Source of the DNA: Candidatus Hermodarchaeota archaeon
GTDB lineage: Archaea > Asgardarchaeota > Lokiarchaeia > Sigyniarchaeales > SOKP01
Assembly: GCA_048885525.1 (NCBI GenBank)
Contig: JBHLLP010000064.1
Coordinates: 1 to 14,521 of the forward strand
DNA length: 14,521 bases
Direction of reading: 5' to 3'
Shown here: positions 3,167 through 14,521 of the stretch, one piece after another
How the letters are laid out: each line of letters begins with the position of its first letter
How positions within the stretch are numbered: position 1 is the first letter of the stretch
Program-made: the position numbers and the translations under genes
Notes under the pieces: model-generated
What the model was told of the DNA's origin: nothing
Database searches by the model: none
Seen by the model: only the letters and a program-made list of their open reading frames with translations

Positions 3167-3691
3167 TTAACTTTTCAAAATTCTCATTTTTAAAACAAAT
3201 AAATTTTAATTTAAATTAGCGCTATTCACATAGAGTTTCTAACCCTAATAAATCTCACTTTTATCTTTCAGAAAGAAAAGTCAATATCATAAATTAAAAT
3301 ATTTATAAATCCGTGAAATAATTTATATAATATTATTTACGACCGAATTATTATTTAACAGCAATCTTGGGATTTATTTATATAAAAATCTAAAAATTAA
3401 TATTTTCGCTATTTTTCGTCTTTATAATTTTAATATTATTAAATTTTCGTTACCCCTTTTTAGAAATGAGAATTAAGTAATTATTGTATTTTTTTATTGC
3501 CTAAAGATTTGAAATCATAAAATGAAAATCATTTCCTTTAAAAAGTTTTATTCGAATGGTCTTCGTTTCCCACCGTCTCTCGCCGGATTAAGTTCGGCAG
3601 ATTTAAATATTGTAAATAACATATATAAAATGATAAAATATTATTTTATTTATTTAATTTAAATTTCTAATCCACTGAACCTTATTCGAAA

Positions 3692-5091: not shown

Positions 5092-6405
5092 TTAATGTGT
5101 CGTACATGAGACACAAGGATCAAAAGCTCTGATTATTCTCTGAATATTGTTTTTCACTAAATTAATATCTCCTGTTCTTTCAAAAAGTAATTTTGCATAA
5201 TTCGTAATCATTTCATTTATAAGAGGAATATTAAATTCGGTAGCAACAAATAATTTTGTTCGATCAATAAAATTATGATCATTTACGTAATAATGATGTA
5301 ATAATAAGCCTCTGGGAGCTTCAATAACACCAATCCCTTCAACTTTTTTTACAGAATTCAAAGCAGGGTTTTCTTGTTTAGTAATTAAATTAGGATCATC
5401 TAAAATTTGTAAACTCTGGAAAGATTCTAAATACATTTCTAATAATCTAAAAAAATTAGCAAATAAGATATTATTTTTCCATTGTTTATCAAAATATTCA
5501 AGATAATTTTGAGTCTCATCTGTACCATAATTCTCTGTAATATTGTACCGGGCAAAAGGACCTACAATCACATTTTTTTTATTATTAAAGTAAAAATCAA
5601 TTCCACGTAAATCAGGCTCCTTTCCAAAATAGGAAGAATAATTGTGCTTTTCAAAATCTATTAAATTTTTATTATCCTCTTTGAGTGATATTCTACCTGA
5701 ATATCGATTAGAATTTTTAAAATTCGAGAGCCCTAGATGAATGAGATTTGGAGTCTCAAATTCTTTAGGTGGTACTTGATGGGAAAATAATTCAATAAAT
5801 TTTTCGATAATCCATTCTAAATTGACTAATGCATTTTGAAATTTCTTTTTAGCTGTTGAAATATTTTTTTTGGAAGGATAAAAAATAATTCCTCCAGGAA
5901 TAATTGAAATTAAATGAACGGATCTACCTCCAAACAAATTATTAATTTCATTTCCAATTTTAATTAATTCATATATATTTGTAGTTAGTTGTGGGTCATA
6001 ATTGATTAAATCATAAGCATTTGCAGTTTTCTGACTAATATTAAAGATATTTAATAGATCTGGTAAAGCTTGGAAAAAGAAATTCATAGAATGGGATTTG
6101 ATTAATTCTCCAGTCATTAAAATACGTCTTAAGAGTTTTGCTTGTTCCGAAACCTTGATATTATATATATCCTCAACTGCTTTACAACTAGCGATTGTTT
6201 GAGAAGCATAACATAATCCACATATCCTAGAAACTATTTTTGGGATATCTAATAATGACTTTCCAATTAAAAAATGTTCAAAACCTCTATAAATTTTAAA
6301 TTCAAAATTAACTAAAGAAATTTCATCATTTTGGATTAAAATTTTTATATCGCCATGTCCTTCTATACGTTTACAAATATCAATCACTTTTAACACATTT
6401 CTCAC
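5092..6405 (-). CDS. mvhA: [NiFe] hydrogenase large subunit, group 3 (MvhA-like by context), with atypical sensor-like features
   Basis: RIEGHG, RGFE, L1 SRICGLCYASQ, EAPRG.L.H and L2 RAFDPCVSCTTH-stop. The GTG start overlaps the upstream TGA (GTGA, 6405-6402). Confidence 0.88.
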   Translation of the reverse strand: MRNVLKVIDICKRIEGHGDIKILIQNDEISLVNFEFKIYRGFEHFLIGKSLLDIPKIVSRICGLCYASQTIASCKAVEDIYNIKVSEQAKLLRRILMTGELIKSHSMNFFFQALPDLLNIFNISQKTANAYDLINYDPQLTTNIYELIKIGNEINNLFGGRSVHLISIIPGGIIFYPSKKNISTAKKKFQNALVNLEWIIEKFIELFSHQVPPKEFETPNLIHLGLSNFKNSNRYSGRISLKEDNKNLIDFEKHNYSSYFGKEPDLRGIDFYFNNKKNVIVGPFARYNITENYGTDETQNYLEYFDKQWKNNILFANFFRLLEMYLESFQSLQILDDPNLITKQENPALNSVKKVEGIGVIEAPRGLLLHHYYVNDHNFIDRTKLFVATEFNIPLINEMITNYAKLLFERTGDINLVKNNIQRIIRAFDPCVSCTTH

Positions 6406-7160
6406 CCTTCCAATTTTGGTTTAGAGAATCGATAAAAAATCCCAGTATAGTCTTTAAGTTCTTGAGATAAATTTATCAAACTTAAATAGTTAACAATATT
6501 AGAAGTAAAATCTTTTGATACAGGCCCTAGACATCCTTCACAGGGAAGACCCATTTTAATGCATTTATGTTCACACCCATCTCGAGTTATGGGTCCTAGA
6601 CATAATATGCCATTTTGTAAAAAACATTGAGAGGTTTCCTCATCAAGTTTAATCTCTTCTGGATTTGGAGCAATTTTTGTAATATTTATACTTGAATTTA
6701 TTTTCATATCTCCTCTTAATGGACAATTACCACACATATTCTTTTCAGAGAGCTCTATTTCCTTATTTTCAACCAATCTAATTAGACAATTTCCAAAAAG
6801 TTTCATAGGAGGTGGACAGCCAGGGATAATACCATCAATTTCAATATAATTTGAAATTGGCTCTGTAACTTTTACATCTGATAGACTCAATATTCCTCCA
6901 AAACTAGCACATGTTCCTAATGCATATATTTTTTTTGCTTGTTTTCGGAGTTTTCGAAGGATAGGTATTTGATTTTCTTCAGAAATGCATCCTTCCACTA
7001 AGCATATATCACAATCTTCAATGTCTTTTACATCAGAAATAAACTGAAAGTAAATAACTTTAGTTCTTTCAAGAAATTGCGGAAAAATATCTAACGAAAT
7101 AAGAGATGAGATGCATCCACTACAAGATGTTAGAGATACTATTACAAATCTACGTTTCAA
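6402..7160 (-). CDS. mvhG: [NiFe] hydrogenase small subunit (MvhG/VhuG-like), about 252 aa
   Basis: SLTSCSGC, LVEG, ALGTCASFGG, IPGCPP, CGNCP and CFLQNGILCLGPITRDGCEHKCIKMGLPCEGCLGP. Start reassigned to TTG 7160, which lies 5 nt after SD GAGGAGGT (7173-7166) and overlaps the upstream stop by 11 nt. Confidence 0.85.
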   Translation of the reverse strand: MKRRFVIVSLTSCSGCISSLISLDIFPQFLERTKVIYFQFISDVKDIEDCDICLVEGCISEENQIPILRKLRKQAKKIYALGTCASFGGILSLSDVKVTEPISNYIEIDGIIPGCPPPMKLFGNCLIRLVENKEIELSEKNMCGNCPLRGDMKINSSINITKIAPNPEEIKLDEETSQCFLQNGILCLGPITRDGCEHKCIKMGLPCEGCLGPVSKDFTSNIVNYLSLINLSQELKDYTGIFYRFSKPKLEG

Positions 7161-9699
7161 ATTTAACCTCCTCATATAATTTTGTATAAAATTTATTAAC
7201 TGCCTCAGCAAACTTAATGCCCTCAACAGCATTCATATGTTTAAGAATTATTCGTTCACGGTATTTCTCTGGTATGATATTTTTTAGTAACATTATTTTT
7301 TTTTCTACTTTTTCTACTCCATCAATATAACGACATGCGTTTTTTCTACAACCAATTACCATTATTCCATCGAAACCAAACTCAAAAGATTTAAGTATGA
7401 AACTTGTATCAATACGACCAGTACAGGGAACAGGTAAAATAAAAATGTTCGGATTATATGAAATCTTTTTATAACCAGCATCATCAGCAGCAGCATAACC
7501 ACAAGAGCGACAACAAAAGGCAATAATTTTAGGTCGTTTTCTGAACTTCGAAAAAATTTCAATTGATTTTAAAATCTTCCCAGAATTATCTATATTTAAA
7601 TCTATCGCATTAGTTGGGCATATACTAGCGCATGTACCACAACCCTTGCATTTAAATTTATCTATACTTACTTTTTCTGATTCTATTGTAATTGCGTTAT
7701 AAGGACATATTTTAGAACACAAACCACATAACCCACACTTGTTATCATCGATTTCAATTCCACTAAATTCCGCTATCAAATAATCATTGGAGAGAAGTGA
7801 AATTATCTTAATTGCAGTATTATTAACTGTTGAAATAGTAGAATTATAATCTAATGGTCCAAATATAGTTCCAACTCCATATATTCCAGATGCTAAGGTT
7901 TCTTCACTCATAAATCCGTAATCATCTAATGTAAAATCCATTGTTTTTCGAAATGATTTTAGATCTTCATTTGGTATTAATGTTTGGTTTAAAACAATTA
8001 AATCACTTGGATATTCTTTCGAGTCCACCTTTACTATCTTTTGATTGTTTTTTTCAATTATTTTTATTTTATTGCTATAATGCATTCTAGAATCCATGGA
8101 TCTAAGTAAAAAATCATCAGCTTTATTTATCTTACTTAAATCGTAAAAAATGTTTACTTTACAGCTAGGAATTTTTGCTTCAATATAATTTAAATATTTT
8201 AGTGCTAGGATATCTTGAAGTTTATGTTGGTGATCAGGAGGTCCTACATATTGTACAATTGAAATTGTCTTTGGAGGTGTTTTATCAGAAATTTTTAATA
8301 TTTTGCCTTCTGTAAATCCATCCGAGGATAACATTCTTTCAAATTCAGATGATGTAATTATATCATTTTGTGGGTTATAACAATAATCGTCTAAATCTGA
8401 GAAAAGGTCAGAACCTATAGCTATAACTTTTGTACCTACTTTAATTTCCATTGGCTCTGGTCTTTTTGTCAAATCTATGGCCTTATTCACGCAAGCACGT
8501 TCACAAATTCTGCAGTTAAGGCAATTATTGATATCTGATTCATCAATTAAAGGAACATAGGGAAAAGAATGAATAAATGGGATGTAAATAATTTTTCTAT
8601 TAATTAATCCAAATTCATATTGATTTGGTTTTTCAATACTACATACTTCTATGCATTGTTTGCAACTAGTACATTTCTTTATATCCACATATCGAGGTTT
8701 TTTAATCAAATTAAGAGTAAAATTTCCAACTTCACCTGAAACGCTTTCTATTTCAGTATTAGTAAGAACTTTTACATTTTTCTCATTAACTAACTCACCT
8801 ATTAATTCTGAAATCAAGCATATAGAACAATCACCCATATTATGAATTCGATCCCATCTGGCAACCTTACCTCCTAAAGTTGGCGATTTTTCAATAACAT
8901 ATACCTTTATACCAGCTCGAGCTAAATTTAATGCTAGTGTTATACTAGCAATTCCACCTCCTATAATTGCAGTACTCTTTTCAATTTCCACTCTCTTAAC
9001 TTTTACTTTTTCTTGAAGACTTATCCGTTCAATAGCTGCTTCAATTAGCAATTTTGCCTTTTCTAATGAAAGAACAGGGTCTATCTGATTTGTTTCGAAC
9101 TGATGTACCCAACAACATTGTTCTCTAATATTTGCTATTTCTATATTGAAATGGTCAATAACGCCATCAAAAATTCGTTTAAAAAGATGTTGATGAGTTC
9201 TAGGAGAACATGCTGCTATTACAATCTTATTTAAGAAATTATCTTTTACCCAATGAGTAATTTTATCAAAATTTTTTTGTTGACATAAATTTTCGAAGAT
9301 TTTTACAGAAACAACCATTCTTAACTTACTAATATATTTTTCAAGTGCCATTATATTAATTACATTTGAAATTTCTGTATTGCAGTTGCAAATTATCACT
9401 CCAATTCGGTTTATTTCACTTCCCTTGGAATCTAAATATTCCTCAATATTCTCTCCTGATAAAATTCTTTTGTTAAGGTTTAGAATCTTTAATACGCGTT
9501 TACCATCTTCAGTAAGAAAATATGATTTTTTGTCTTTATTTATCAGTGAACCAATTTTTTTAAGATGGAAATTTAGTTGCCCTGTTGTTTCTAGACCCAA
9601 TTTTTCCATTAAATCTGTATAGGGAATATAACCCTCTTTTTCTAAAAGAAGTAAGATTTTTCTTCTAAACGGGTGAGATAATATAGCATATAAATCCAT
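7150..9699 (-). CDS. Fusion protein: ArsR-like winged HTH (aa ~1-75) + degenerate HdrA (aa ~98-720) + MvhD [2Fe-2S] domain (aa ~722-849)
   Basis: wHTH: LSHPFRRKILLLL..YTDLMEKLGL.TTGQLNFHLKKI..YFLTEDG. HdrA: RIGVIICNC, AACSPRTH, ANIREQCCWVH, IIGGGIAS, GDCSIC and four CxxCxxCxxxC motifs. MvhD: IIAFCCRSCGYAAAD..VPCTGRID..DGIMVIGCRKNACRY. Confidence 0.9.
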   Translation of the reverse strand: MDLYAILSHPFRRKILLLLEKEGYIPYTDLMEKLGLETTGQLNFHLKKIGSLINKDKKSYFLTEDGKRVLKILNLNKRILSGENIEEYLDSKGSEINRIGVIICNCNTEISNVINIMALEKYISKLRMVVSVKIFENLCQQKNFDKITHWVKDNFLNKIVIAACSPRTHQHLFKRIFDGVIDHFNIEIANIREQCCWVHQFETNQIDPVLSLEKAKLLIEAAIERISLQEKVKVKRVEIEKSTAIIGGGIASITLALNLARAGIKVYVIEKSPTLGGKVARWDRIHNMGDCSICLISELIGELVNEKNVKVLTNTEIESVSGEVGNFTLNLIKKPRYVDIKKCTSCKQCIEVCSIEKPNQYEFGLINRKIIYIPFIHSFPYVPLIDESDINNCLNCRICERACVNKAIDLTKRPEPMEIKVGTKVIAIGSDLFSDLDDYCYNPQNDIITSSEFERMLSSDGFTEGKILKISDKTPPKTISIVQYVGPPDHQHKLQDILALKYLNYIEAKIPSCKVNIFYDLSKINKADDFLLRSMDSRMHYSNKIKIIEKNNQKIVKVDSKEYPSDLIVLNQTLIPNEDLKSFRKTMDFTLDDYGFMSEETLASGIYGVGTIFGPLDYNSTISTVNNTAIKIISLLSNDYLIAEFSGIEIDDNKCGLCGLCSKICPYNAITIESEKVSIDKFKCKGCGTCASICPTNAIDLNIDNSGKILKSIEIFSKFRKRPKIIAFCCRSCGYAAADDAGYKKISYNPNIFILPVPCTGRIDTSFILKSFEFGFDGIMVIGCRKNACRYIDGVEKVEKKIMLLKNIIPEKYRERIILKHMNAVEGIKFAEAVNKFYTKLYEEVKFET

Positions 9700-11383: not shown

Positions 11384-13420
11384 ATGTCTGAGATACAGAC
11401 CATAGTAAGAATAGGAGTTTATATTTGTAGATGAGGAGTTAATATTAGTGCTTCTATTGACTGTGATATCATCAGAGATTACGTTGAAGCTCTCCCAAAC
11501 GTTATTGTAGCAAGAGTAAATGATTTTACTTGTAGCGATCCAGGACAAAATATTATAAAAAATGATATTTTAGATTTAGACTTAAATCGAGTTGTTGTTG
11601 CAGCTTGTACACCTAAAATTCATGAATCCACCTATCGAGTAGTTTTAACTCAAGCAGGATTGAGCCCTTATTACTTCCAAATGGTTAATCTGCGTGAACA
11701 TTGCTCATTTACATACTCGGGAAATAAGAGAAAGACTACTGAAAAAGCGATAAGGTTAGTGCAAGCTGGGATAAATCGTGCTAGAGAATTAGAAATAATA
11801 CCTTATAAAAAAGTGTCAGTAGAAAAATCAGTATTGATTATCGGTGCGGGCATTGCAGGGATGAATGCTGCATTAGATTTAGCAAATCAAGGAATTAACG
11901 TCTATTTAGTCGAAAAAGAAGCCACAATTGGCGGGAAAATGGCACAATTAGATCGAATTTATCCTACAGACGATTGTGCTATATGAGTTTTAGCACCTAT
12001 AATGGTTAGCACTTCAAAACATCCAAATATAACATTATTTACTTATAGTGAAATCATTAAATTTAGTGGTATCCCTGGAAATTATAATGTTAAAATTCAC
12101 AAAAAAGCACGGTATATTAATGAAAAAAAATGCACTGGTTGTGGATTATGTACAACTGAATGCCCAATAAAAGTTCCTAACGAATTTGATAGAGGTATTG
12201 GCGAACGAAGTGCAATTTTCATACCTTTTCCCCAAGCAGTACCTAAAGTTGCGTTAATTGACAAGAGTGTATGCATAGGATGTAAAAATTGTCAAAGAAT
12301 TTGCCCTGCAGAAGCCATTGATTTTGAACAGACTTCAGAATATATAAATATAAAAGTTGGAGCGGTAATTATTGCAACGGGATGGGATGAATATCCAATT
12401 ATGGAAAATAACGATTATAAATATGGTATTTATCCTGATGTTATTACTCAAATAGAATTAGAACGTATGTTGAGTCCAGTAGGACCAACTGGAGGTCATG
12501 TATATAGAATTTCTGATGGGAATATCCCAAAAACAGTTGCAATGATTCAATGCGTAGGTTCAAGATCCTTAAATGGAAATCCCTATTGCTCAGGAGTATG
12601 ATGTAATGTTGCACTTAAAAACGCGCAATTGTTAAAACAAGAATATCCTGATATGGAAATTGTTATCTTTTATATAGATATGCGGACATGGGATAAAGGA
12701 AATGAAGAATATTATAGAAAAGCGAGAGAAGCAGGGATAATGATGATTCGGGGGAAGGTAGGAGATATTCGAGAAGATCCTAACCTTAAAAAAATAAAAG
12801 TTATAGCTTCTTCAACATTGACAAATGATTTCATTACCATGAATACCGATTTAGTTGTATTATCCACCGGTATGATTCCATCTAAAAAAACAACACAAAT
12901 TGTTGAAACTTTAGGTATTGCTAAAGATATCAATGGGTTTTTAACTGAAGTTCATGGATGCCTAAAACCTCAAGAAACAACTAATTTGGGTATTTATATT
13001 TGCGGTTGTGCTGCTGGACCTAAAAATATCCCTTATTCCGTCTCAACAGCGTTAGCTGCGGCAAGTAAGGTATCTACTTTACTTTCTAAAGATAAAATAA
13101 CTCAAGAGTTAATCATCGCTGAAATAAATGAAGATTTATGTATAGCTTGTCATAGATGTGAGAAACTCTGTAATTATAAGGCAATAAAAGTTAATGGAGA
13201 AAATATAGCTGAAGTAGACGATTTGAAATGTAAGGGCTGCGGAGTTTGTGTATCTTCATGCCCTGCTCGAGCAATTGATCTAAAATACTATAGAGATCAA
13301 CAAATTATTGAAGAGATAAAAGGGATTTGTAGCACTGAACTTGAATATAAGGAAGAATTTATTGAATCTATTGAACTTGTTTGGAAAAAAATAGAAGAAT
13401 TAACTCCTTATACTTCATAA
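11384..13420 (+). CDS. hdrA: Heterodisulfide reductase subunit A, 678 aa, predicted selenoprotein with three UGA-Sec codons (U17, U201, U406)
   Basis: A single frame from ATG 11384 to TAA 13418-13420 joins track ORFs 11660, 12002 and 12629 plus an unlisted N-terminus (MSEIQTIVRIGVYICR*GVNI). TGAs at 11432, 11984 and 12599 fall in CR*G, DDCAI*VLAP and YCSGV*CN, all Cys positions in HdrA. GAGIAG, QCVGSR, GPKNIP and four ferredoxin motifs are intact. Confidence 0.93.
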
Positions 13421-13491
13421 TCTGAAAAGGAATGATCCTCCTAAAAAAATGTTAGTTAAGAGGAGACTAACCCATTGTATGGGTTTTCAGA
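13421..13491 (+). promoter_or_regulatory. Eukaryote-like (Lokiarchaeota-type) SECIS element in the hdrA 3' UTR
   Basis: Outer helix TCTGAAAA(13421-28)/TTTTCAGA(13484-91). Core ATGA(13432-35) faces GA(13465-66). Upper helix TCCTC-C-TAA/TTA-A-GAGGA. The apical loop begins with unpaired As. Confidence 0.85.
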
Positions 13492-13528
13492 CAAATATAA
13501 AAAAGTAATTGATATTAATTTTTTATCA

Positions 13529-14521
13529 TCAGTAGCGATTAATTTGATTTTTGATCTTTAAGGAAATTAATTTATTATACCAATCTAATTTCTTATTCTT
13601 CCATTCAATAGTTCTGTCAGATGGAACAATAAGTTGCTCAATTATTCCTTTTGAAAGCATATTATTTATTACTTTCTCACCTTTATCTGTTCTAATTAAA
13701 ATCATGGAATATCCTTCTGGAGCTCCAGACGCCCCAACACTAATATCTGTAAATCTTCCTGTGAATTCATCACATTCATGGCAATTAATTCTTACTGCAG
13801 GATTAAGAGTTTTTATATTGATTTCGAATTCTTTATTATCTTTAGTTTGGATAAAAAAATTCTTTTTTATCCAAGTTTTTTTAATATTAGTAGGATCAAC
13901 ATTAGTCTCTTTTCTTAGAATATCATATAATTCGCTATAGATAAAATTCTCAAAACAGAAAAGACCTATAATATATTTAATTACATGCGCGGGTTTTACA
14001 AGTAAATATTTCATTTTACTTACAGCCTTACATTGACAAGGAGTTCCAATAAATGCAATTCTTAGCTGATCGATATCAAATATTTCCTTTTTCATAAGAA
14101 TCTCTTGTGGTATAGTATATAAATTTTTTAAAGGAAATATTTGAGGAGAAATTGAATAACGAGTACCTGCTGATTTAAAAAGATCTTCTTTATCAAATAT
14201 GATTTTTGGAACAGGTTCAAAATTATCGTTAAATTCTGAAACAATAGCTGCATCAATTTTATGTTTTTCAAATAAATATGTTAGAATTGCTGAGACCACT
14301 CCTCCATCTTGTCCAATTTTTTCTAATGTTGAGATTGTTGTTTTAGCAGCAAGAATTTTAATAATATATCCAATATTATCTTCAATACAATAATTATCAT
14401 TCAACTCTTTTAATAATACTTTAGTTTGGGGACAAATATAATAACAAACACCACATTTAGTACAATTCTCAACAGTTTTTTCTGATTTAAACTCCGGAAT
14501 GTATCCTTTCATTTCAATAAC
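13529..14521 (-). CDS. Second FrhB/FdhB-like F420-binding beta-subunit protein, 5'-truncated by the window edge
   Basis: CTKCGVCYYICP, GQDGGVV, SAGTRY, IGTPCQ, IGLFCFENF, CHECDEFT...DISVG and RTDKG. The frame is open beyond ATG 14512 to the edge (..VIE-MKG), and the paralog's first ferredoxin motif is missing, so the true start lies outside. Confidence 0.88.
   Translation of the reverse strand, partial: VIEMKGYIPEFKSEKTVENCTKCGVCYYICPQTKVLLKELNDNYCIEDNIGYIIKILAAKTTISTLEKIGQDGGVVSAILTYLFEKHKIDAAIVSEFNDNFEPVPKIIFDKEDLFKSAGTRYSISPQIFPLKNLYTIPQEILMKKEIFDIDQLRIAFIGTPCQCKAVSKMKYLLVKPAHVIKYIIGLFCFENFIYSELYDILRKETNVDPTNIKKTWIKKNFFIQTKDNKEFEINIKTLNPAVRINCHECDEFTGRFTDISVGASGAPEGYSMILIRTDKGEKVINNMLSKGIIEQLIVPSDRTIEWKNKKLDWYNKLISLKIKNQINRY

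Follow-up and report, generated by a model that had tools for sequence, protein, structure and literature searches.

The segment at 13421–13491 (+) of the window, that is, of the whole 14.5-kb contig C64 of a 3.58-Mb assembly (29% GC, rated 99% complete), is, judged from its sequence, a conserved lokiSECIS, an element of the eukaryote-like kind known since 2016 that would direct the insertion of selenocysteine (Sec). It lies directly behind hdrA, the gene for heterodisulfide reductase subunit A, and with a probability of roughly 87% we consider that it is a lokiSECIS in the 3′ UTR of hdrA, which is transcribed as a monocistronic mRNA, that Sec is inserted at UGA codons 17, 201 and 406, and that the body of a vhuD gene has been lost at this locus.

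The hdrA gene and its three in-frame UGA codons

The hdrA gene at 11384–13420 (+) comprises 678 codons followed by TAA and is open when TGA is read as U. Its product has FAD/Rossmann and Fer4 (4Fe-4S ferredoxin) domains in Pfam, and solved HdrA structures match it from end to end (9sfi_A, E = 7e-211; 5odc_A, E = 6e-206). As it is flanked by a divergent and a convergent FrhB-like gene, hdrA should be monocistronic. UGA 1, codon 17 (11432–11434, +), lies in the N-terminal CxC motif and faces Cys in solved HdrA; the codon is UGA in 31 of 32 orthologues, and Sec is also found there in three paralogues of the same genome. In orthologue L068, codon 17 encodes Gly. UGA 2, codon 201 (11984–11986, +), is the canonical HdrA Sec site, equivalent to Cys197, which ligates the N-terminal FeS cluster of the partner subunit (PMC9012536). 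It is UGA in 32/32 orthologues, and U201 faces an X in PDB entry 9sfi_A, which we read as the canonical Sec. With a full-length HdrA and a UGA at the canonical position, at about residue 200, the gene agrees with what defines an HdrA selenoprotein.

UGA 3, codon 406 (12599–12601, +), is the first residue of a conserved CC pair and faces Cys in solved HdrA. A UGA at this codon was seen in the genome under study only; the orthologues have TGT or TGC, the codon differs by one base from the TGT that all close relatives have, and two orthologues (L080 and L081) instead carry UGA at the neighbouring codon 407. The examined multi-Sec paralogues have their Sec sites at 17, 50, 75, 201 and 619, and these five sites, including the C-terminal ferredoxin site, fit Mariotti's description. 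Since it is absent from these paralogue sites, Sec406 is an extra site, and motif searches of the sequence files of Huang 2024 returned Sec at neither 406 nor 407. Sec406 is thus predicted, from one assembly, to be a new Sec site, though it could be an assembly or sequencing error or a recent nonsense mutation.

The restriction of UGA 406 to one genome, a single base from the TGT of its relatives, is also what would be expected if hdrA were a decaying pseudogene, or if this UGA were an assembly error or a fresh nonsense mutation, with two or none of the UGAs being decoded. Such an explanation appears improbable, because the frame is otherwise intact over all 678 codons, with 92% identity to the nearest orthologue and every domain present, because UGAs 17 and 201 are kept across the orthologues in the numbers given above, and because UGAs at 407 in two orthologues and at 112, 260 and 297 elsewhere indicate that switching between Cys and Sec recurs under a SECIS. 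The last three codons are orthologue-specific extra UGAs, at codon 112 in L097 and at codons 260 and 297 in L079. As far as can be read from sequence, these scattered Cys/Sec switches (112, 260, 297, 406 and 407) fit a position-independent recoding by a 3′ element.

The distances from the UGAs to the AUGA of the element are 2000 nt (from 11432), 1448 nt (from 11984) and 833 nt (from 12599), confirming the positions given in the initial annotation of this DNA, which had described a single element 0.8–2.0 kb 3′ of three in-frame UGAs that it would recode. Structure after UGAs 1, 2 and 3 was not above chance (z = 0.21, -0.07 and 0.27, respectively; folding vs shuffles), and a bacterial in-CDS SECIS was rejected, as folding of the 80 nt behind each UGA was no better than that of shuffled sequences.

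Elsewhere in the window, 5092–9699 (-) is occupied by a Cys-type Mvh-like cluster without in-frame TGA, which encodes the large (5092–6405) and small (6402–7232) subunits of a NiFe hydrogenase and, at 7150–9699, an HdrA-like protein of 849 residues with a fused MvhD/FlpD domain and an N-terminal winged-helix DUF7347 (all -). The convergent FrhB-like gene at 13529–14512 (-) ends with three consecutive stops, TGA TGA TAA, at 13523–13531, on the opposite strand and 40 nt from the SECIS; UGA is thus also an ordinary stop in this genome.

Anatomy of the element

The hdrA frame is closed by the stop codon TAA at 13418–13420 (+), as read from the sequence. The basal helix (helix 1), indicated by compensatory changes and RNAalifold, pairs 13421–13427 (+) with 13485–13491 (+), so that its first paired base is the first base after TAA; it can be extended to 13421–28/13484–91, the innermost pair 13428/13484 being in competition with a hairpin at 13470–75/13479–84. 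The AUGA core, the defining feature of the lokiSECIS, follows the stop codon at a spacing of 11 nt (13432–13435, +) and is invariant in an ungapped 24-sequence alignment. Helix 2 and its apical loop span 13436–13464 (+), as deduced from sequence and covariation: the 9-bp stem is formed by the 5′ arm UCCUCCUAA (13436–13444) and the 3′ arm UUAAGAGGA (13456–13464), with eight Watson–Crick pairs and the single mismatch C13441·A13459, and it carries the 11-nt loop AAAAAUGUUAG (13445–13455, +, read from the sequence), in which A30–32, T36 and G38 are invariant in the same alignment. On the 3′ side, the core GA (13465–13466) and a conserved CUA form the stretch 13465–13469 (+), of which the first base is G or A among the orthologues, the next A, C and U are invariant in the 24 sequences, and the final A is at least 90% conserved.

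The initial annotation had located AUGA, the 9-bp stem, the loop, GA and the start of the basal helix, all of which proved exact to the base. It had also proposed that the core forms tandem G·A/A·G pairs; though AUGA and GA are indeed present here, the pairing is not conserved, and since the core is AUGA...AA in most orthologues, with GA found here and in a few others, tandem G·A/A·G pairing is no conserved requirement. The first oligo-T tract 3′ of the element, a T6 at 13519–13524 (+) that may serve as an archaeal terminator signal, lies 27 nt past its end. A run of five or more T is absent between the stop codon and 13491, and there is hence no hint in the sequence of termination ahead of the SECIS.

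Assignment to the lokiSECIS class

The lokiSECIS was defined by a 9-bp stem flanked immediately by AUGA on its 5′ side and by GA (or AA) on its 3′ side, and by an 11-nt loop in which the first five bases are mostly A and the last G is usually preceded by A (Mariotti 2016, PMC4989117); it lies close behind the selenoprotein CDS and was reported in HdrA-VhuD, VhuU and PrxL genes (PMC4989117). Under its other name, the Asgard type I eSECIS-like element, it has looser limits, with a stem of 7–15 bp and at most two mismatches (Huang 2024, PMC11227280). The sequence at 13421–13491 agrees with all the published lokiSECIS sequence criteria and with the type I limits, having AUGA abutting the stem, eight pairs and the C·A mismatch in the 9-bp stem, an A-rich 11-nt loop ending in G and GA 3′ of the stem, and it closely follows a selenoprotein CDS, the genome having Sec machinery. 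On these published sequence criteria, the initial assignment to the kink-turn-type SECIS class of eukaryotes and Lokiarchaeota holds, the kink-turn fold being a prediction from them.

As to the Sec machinery, contig C8 carries tRNA-Sec (66342–66434, -) adjoining SepSecS (64962–66119, -) and, about 5.5 kb from tRNA-Sec, an EFSec-like GTPase gene (71870–72757, +), and a PSTK-like gene is found on C41. The relatives are labelled as Promethearchaeota/Promethearchaeia MAGs, that is, the Loki lineage.

Rfam searches of the whole window and of 13400–13530 returned matches at chance level only, with no SECIS or C/D-box family among them, and no SECIS family even at E ≤ 10. Membership of the Rfam eukaryotic SECIS families and a snoRNA-like C/D k-turn RNA were rejected on this ground. 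ARAGORN found no tRNA in the window. The euryarchaeal eaSECIS is defined by a GAA_A internal bulge, three consecutive G-C pairs and an upper stem of 3–6 bp (PMC11227280), and it was rejected because inspection of 13421–13491 revealed no GAA_A bulge. The element was thus correctly set apart in the initial annotation from bacterial in-CDS elements and from the GAA/A elements of Methanococcales, given that neither above-chance structure after the UGAs nor this bulge is present.

Conservation and covariation

The orthologue group of the window hdrA, with products of 675–678 residues and 75–92% identity, was drawn from 14 congeneric genomes and 32 public MAG loci. In 32/32 orthologues fetched, the element starts at the stop codon and AUGA lies 11 nt downstream, in accordance with the initial expectation that the motif would stand behind orthologous UGA-containing genes. 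In several orthologues (L079, L084 and L086, at about 3535–3552; L037 and L039), TAA is replaced by TTA, which extends the frame by five codons to the UGA within AUGA. As these frames end on the UGA of the SECIS core, the stop codon is itself part of the recoding signal in the TTA orthologues.

Covariation downstream of other selenoprotein genes had been named as a check on the structure, and compensatory changes were found in all three helices. An ungapped MAFFT alignment of 24 elements exhibited compensatory changes in helices 1 and 2 at a score reached by 0/500 shuffles, and slid registers collapsed. Among 84 model-aligned elements, 22/22 pairs exhibited compensatory changes (7/7 pairs of helix 1 and 9/9 of helix 2), again with 0/500 shuffles reaching the score, and 95%, 95% and 82% of cells were paired in helices 1, 2 and 3, respectively, counts that are inflated because the homologues are close kin and this alignment (A2) was fitted to the model. 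Furthermore, RNAalifold returned the three helices de novo, including the CCC/GGG core of hairpin 3. Unconstrained MFE folding alone does not choose helix 2 (z = -1.4), preferring an alternative pairing for part of the element; helix 2 was recovered both by constrained folding and by RNAalifold on the 84 homologues.

Occurrence of the element in the genome

A loose hairpin descriptor gave 237 mostly meaningless matches in this 29% GC genome and was therefore tightened. The strict descriptor (ATGA, 9-nt arms with at least eight pairs, an 11-nt loop AAA...G, then GA or AA) matched two sites in the 3.58-Mb genome, behind the window hdrA and a two-UGA vhuD, compared to a mean of 0.4 in block-shuffled genomes; both sites are 3′ of UGA-containing hdrA/vhuD genes. 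A covariance model built from 24 homologues, with which 150 candidates were scored in the same genome, returned eight sites, of which seven stand behind UGA-containing ORFs and the eighth is weak (E = 1.3). The element behind the vhuD on contig C5, which has a 12-nt loop, was missed by this search of 150 scored candidates.

Four further lokiSECIS-like sequences with a side hairpin were observed in this genome behind other ORFs. The UGA-containing ORF upstream of C35:26517–26595 is a small one for a membrane protein with GGGG-U-A-C, those upstream of C70:460–536 and C40:22978–23052 encode a two-helix micro-protein and a CxxC micro-protein, respectively, and C1:79761–79837 is preceded by a 163-codon ORF with adjacent UGA-UGA.

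Given the 108-nt gap between the convergent genes, the oligo-T and oligo-A tracts nearby and an overall folding energy that is unremarkable (z = -1.4), the structure might be regarded as solely a transcript-end element of these genes, a terminator or 3′-stabilizing hairpin, with the UGAs being recoded by other means or not at all. We regard this as extremely improbable. A plain terminator has no need of an unpaired AUGA, an A-rich loop, an AG at the loop end or an ACU behind the core, all of which are invariant or almost invariant; the elements of the same design that were checked in this genome follow UGA-containing ORFs; and the same element occurs behind vhuD in tandem units whatever the downstream gene.

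Absence of vhuD from the locus

hdrA and vhuD/frhD have been described as always adjacent, sharing an element behind vhuD (PMC4989117, PMC11227280). The genome has four Sec-HdrA genes, and behind each of the three besides the window gene stands a two-UGA vhuD with the same kind of element after it. The window hdrA is without vhuD, and throughout its orthologue group the SECIS lies directly behind hdrA; members of this standalone-hdrA group are present in the HdrA selenoprotein file of Huang 2024. The literature generalization is thus corrected, in that hdrA is not always paired with vhuD and a whole orthologue group has the SECIS directly behind hdrA.

The C-terminal tail of HdrA (13349–13411, +) is homologous to that of VhuD by hhalign and Smith–Waterman comparison: EEFIESIELVWKKIEELTP, the last 20 or so HdrA residues, aligns with the VhuD tail EKFINSVEDIVAKINALPP. 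In hhalign, the tail profile matched residues 117–137 of 143 of the VhuD profile (E = 1.9e-5, probability 78%), and the Smith–Waterman score of the tail against VhuD was reached by 5/2000 shuffles. Derivation of the tail from the C-terminus of the paralogue HdrA itself was rejected, its score being lower (27 vs 41 for VhuD). In addition, the element is homologous base for base to the post-vhuD element of a 75%-identical paralogue unit, including the TAAUC[UC]GAAA lead-in. Most likely, in view of this alignment and of a tail homology extending over about 20 residues, an in-frame deletion of the HdrA stop codon and most of vhuD brought the SECIS next to hdrA.

At L107:3513–3645, a member of the 75%-identity paralogue group is also without vhuD and has a different HdrA tail. 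Its element has AUGC...AA in place of AUGA, with the C·A mismatch at the shared position, possibly representing a second, independent loss of vhuD with a degenerating core.

A third hairpin next to the core

A six-pair hairpin (hairpin 3, ACCCAU-UGU-AUGGGU; 13470–13484, +; pairs 13470–75/13479–84), placed 3′ of the core GA and 5′ of the closing strand of the basal helix, was indicated by folding, covariation and RNAalifold; it stacks directly on the basal helix and makes the element a three-way junction. It is absent from the initial annotation. Hairpin 3 was found in 6/6 SECIS elements of this genome that were folded, 3–5 nt downstream of the core GA/AA and directly against the basal helix, and among the 84 homologues its core CCC/GGG pairs switch to U-A in 8–10 sequences. 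A literature search returned no description of an Asgard SECIS as a three-way junction, and the figures or supplement of Mariotti 2016 may draw an extra hairpin.

We tentatively put forward, as a possibility on the doubtful side, that the Asgard SECIS is a three-way junction in which the signal requires the side hairpin (13470–84) beside the AUGA/GA core. The published models define the core, upper stem and loop only, and conservation is poor for the outer pairs of hairpin 3 (82% of cells paired), as might be expected if hairpin 3 and the basal helix formed an adjoining module of their own, such as a processing or termination signal, that is close by chance of descent. That explanation is rather unlikely in our view, given that hairpin 3 occupies the same place in all six folded elements, including those behind unrelated genes with different sequences, and that its core pairs covary.

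Discussion

Considering these results, we propose the following scenario for the hdrA mRNA, in which we infer the kink-turn geometry, the binding partner, the recoding and the deletion history. The RNA would fold into the basal helix, the AUGA/GA core with its 9-bp helix and A-rich 11-nt loop, and the small side hairpin. Given its analogy to the 3′-UTR SECIS elements of eukaryotes and methanococci, the folded element may recruit a Sec-specific elongation factor with Sec-tRNASec, directly or via an adaptor, to ribosomes on the hdrA mRNA, which would then read the UGAs 2.0 kb (codon 17), 1.4 kb (codon 201) and 0.8 kb (codon 406) upstream as Sec. An ancestral hdrA-vhuD-SECIS unit may have lost the body of vhuD, fusing the VhuD tail and the SECIS onto hdrA, and this presumed loss would explain why the element stands immediately behind the stop codon. 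Neither published study of these elements found SBP2 in Asgard genomes (PMC4989117, PMC11227280), and if the side hairpin is obligatory, it could be a docking site for an archaeal counterpart of SBP2. The literature yielded no account of any Asgard SECIS having been tested experimentally.

How a 3′ element could act when translation is coupled to transcription had been raised in the initial annotation, and the question is a real one, as ribosomes would arrive at codon 17 well ahead of the transcription of the SECIS. Every archaeal 3′-UTR SECIS faces it to the same degree, and the coupling problem is thus not new. The service of several UGAs by one element had also been presented there as a prokaryotic parallel to SELENOP; the idea is not new, since in HdrA-VhuD as many as six UGAs spread across about 2 kb were described as served by one lokiSECIS (Mariotti 2016, PMC4989117). 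The vertebrate SELENOP mRNA shares with hdrA the decoding of several UGAs from 3′-UTR signals, though two SECIS elements operate there (PMC4989117), compared to one element with three well-separated UGAs here.

The element has AUGA, the 9-bp stem, the AAAAA...AG 11-nt loop, GA/AA, its position after the CDS and its several distant UGAs in common with the lokiSECIS and type I eSECIS-like elements. It differs from the published lokiSECIS in standing behind hdrA itself rather than vhuD, and in its basal helix and third hairpin, which are absent from the text of both reports (PMC4989117, PMC11227280). Compared to the eukaryotic SECIS (Rfam SECIS_1 and related), the upper helix of 9 bp is shorter (PMC4989117), C rather than U follows the 3′ GA, and the internal loop carries an additional hairpin on its 3′ side. 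The 3′-UTR SECIS of Methanococcales and Methanopyrus is likewise an archaeal 3′-UTR element for upstream UGAs in HdrA and VhuD, whereas the element here has an AUGA/GA core, no GAA_A bulge and no three consecutive G-C pairs in its upper stem.

A k-junction is a three-way junction built on a k-turn, as in TPP riboswitches. With its G·A-type core at a junction of three helices, the element may resemble such a junction.

Covariation from more than 80 homologues supports a Loki-type, eukaryote-like 3′ SECIS serving several distant UGAs, leaving the basic published story unchanged. The additions made here are modest, namely the vhuD-less layout with its likely origin by deletion, Sec406 and the three-way junction in HdrA and VhuD elements. 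If the side hairpin does prove to be an obligatory part of the signal, the monocistronic hdrA, with one element and three UGAs at most 2 kb away, would be the simplest natural template for finding the factor that binds it, and the same hdrA would allow the action of a 3′ signal to be tested where translation may be coupled to transcription. If functional, hairpin 3 would call for a revision of the working model for the Asgard SECIS and, with it, of the picture of the origin of the eukaryotic SECIS.
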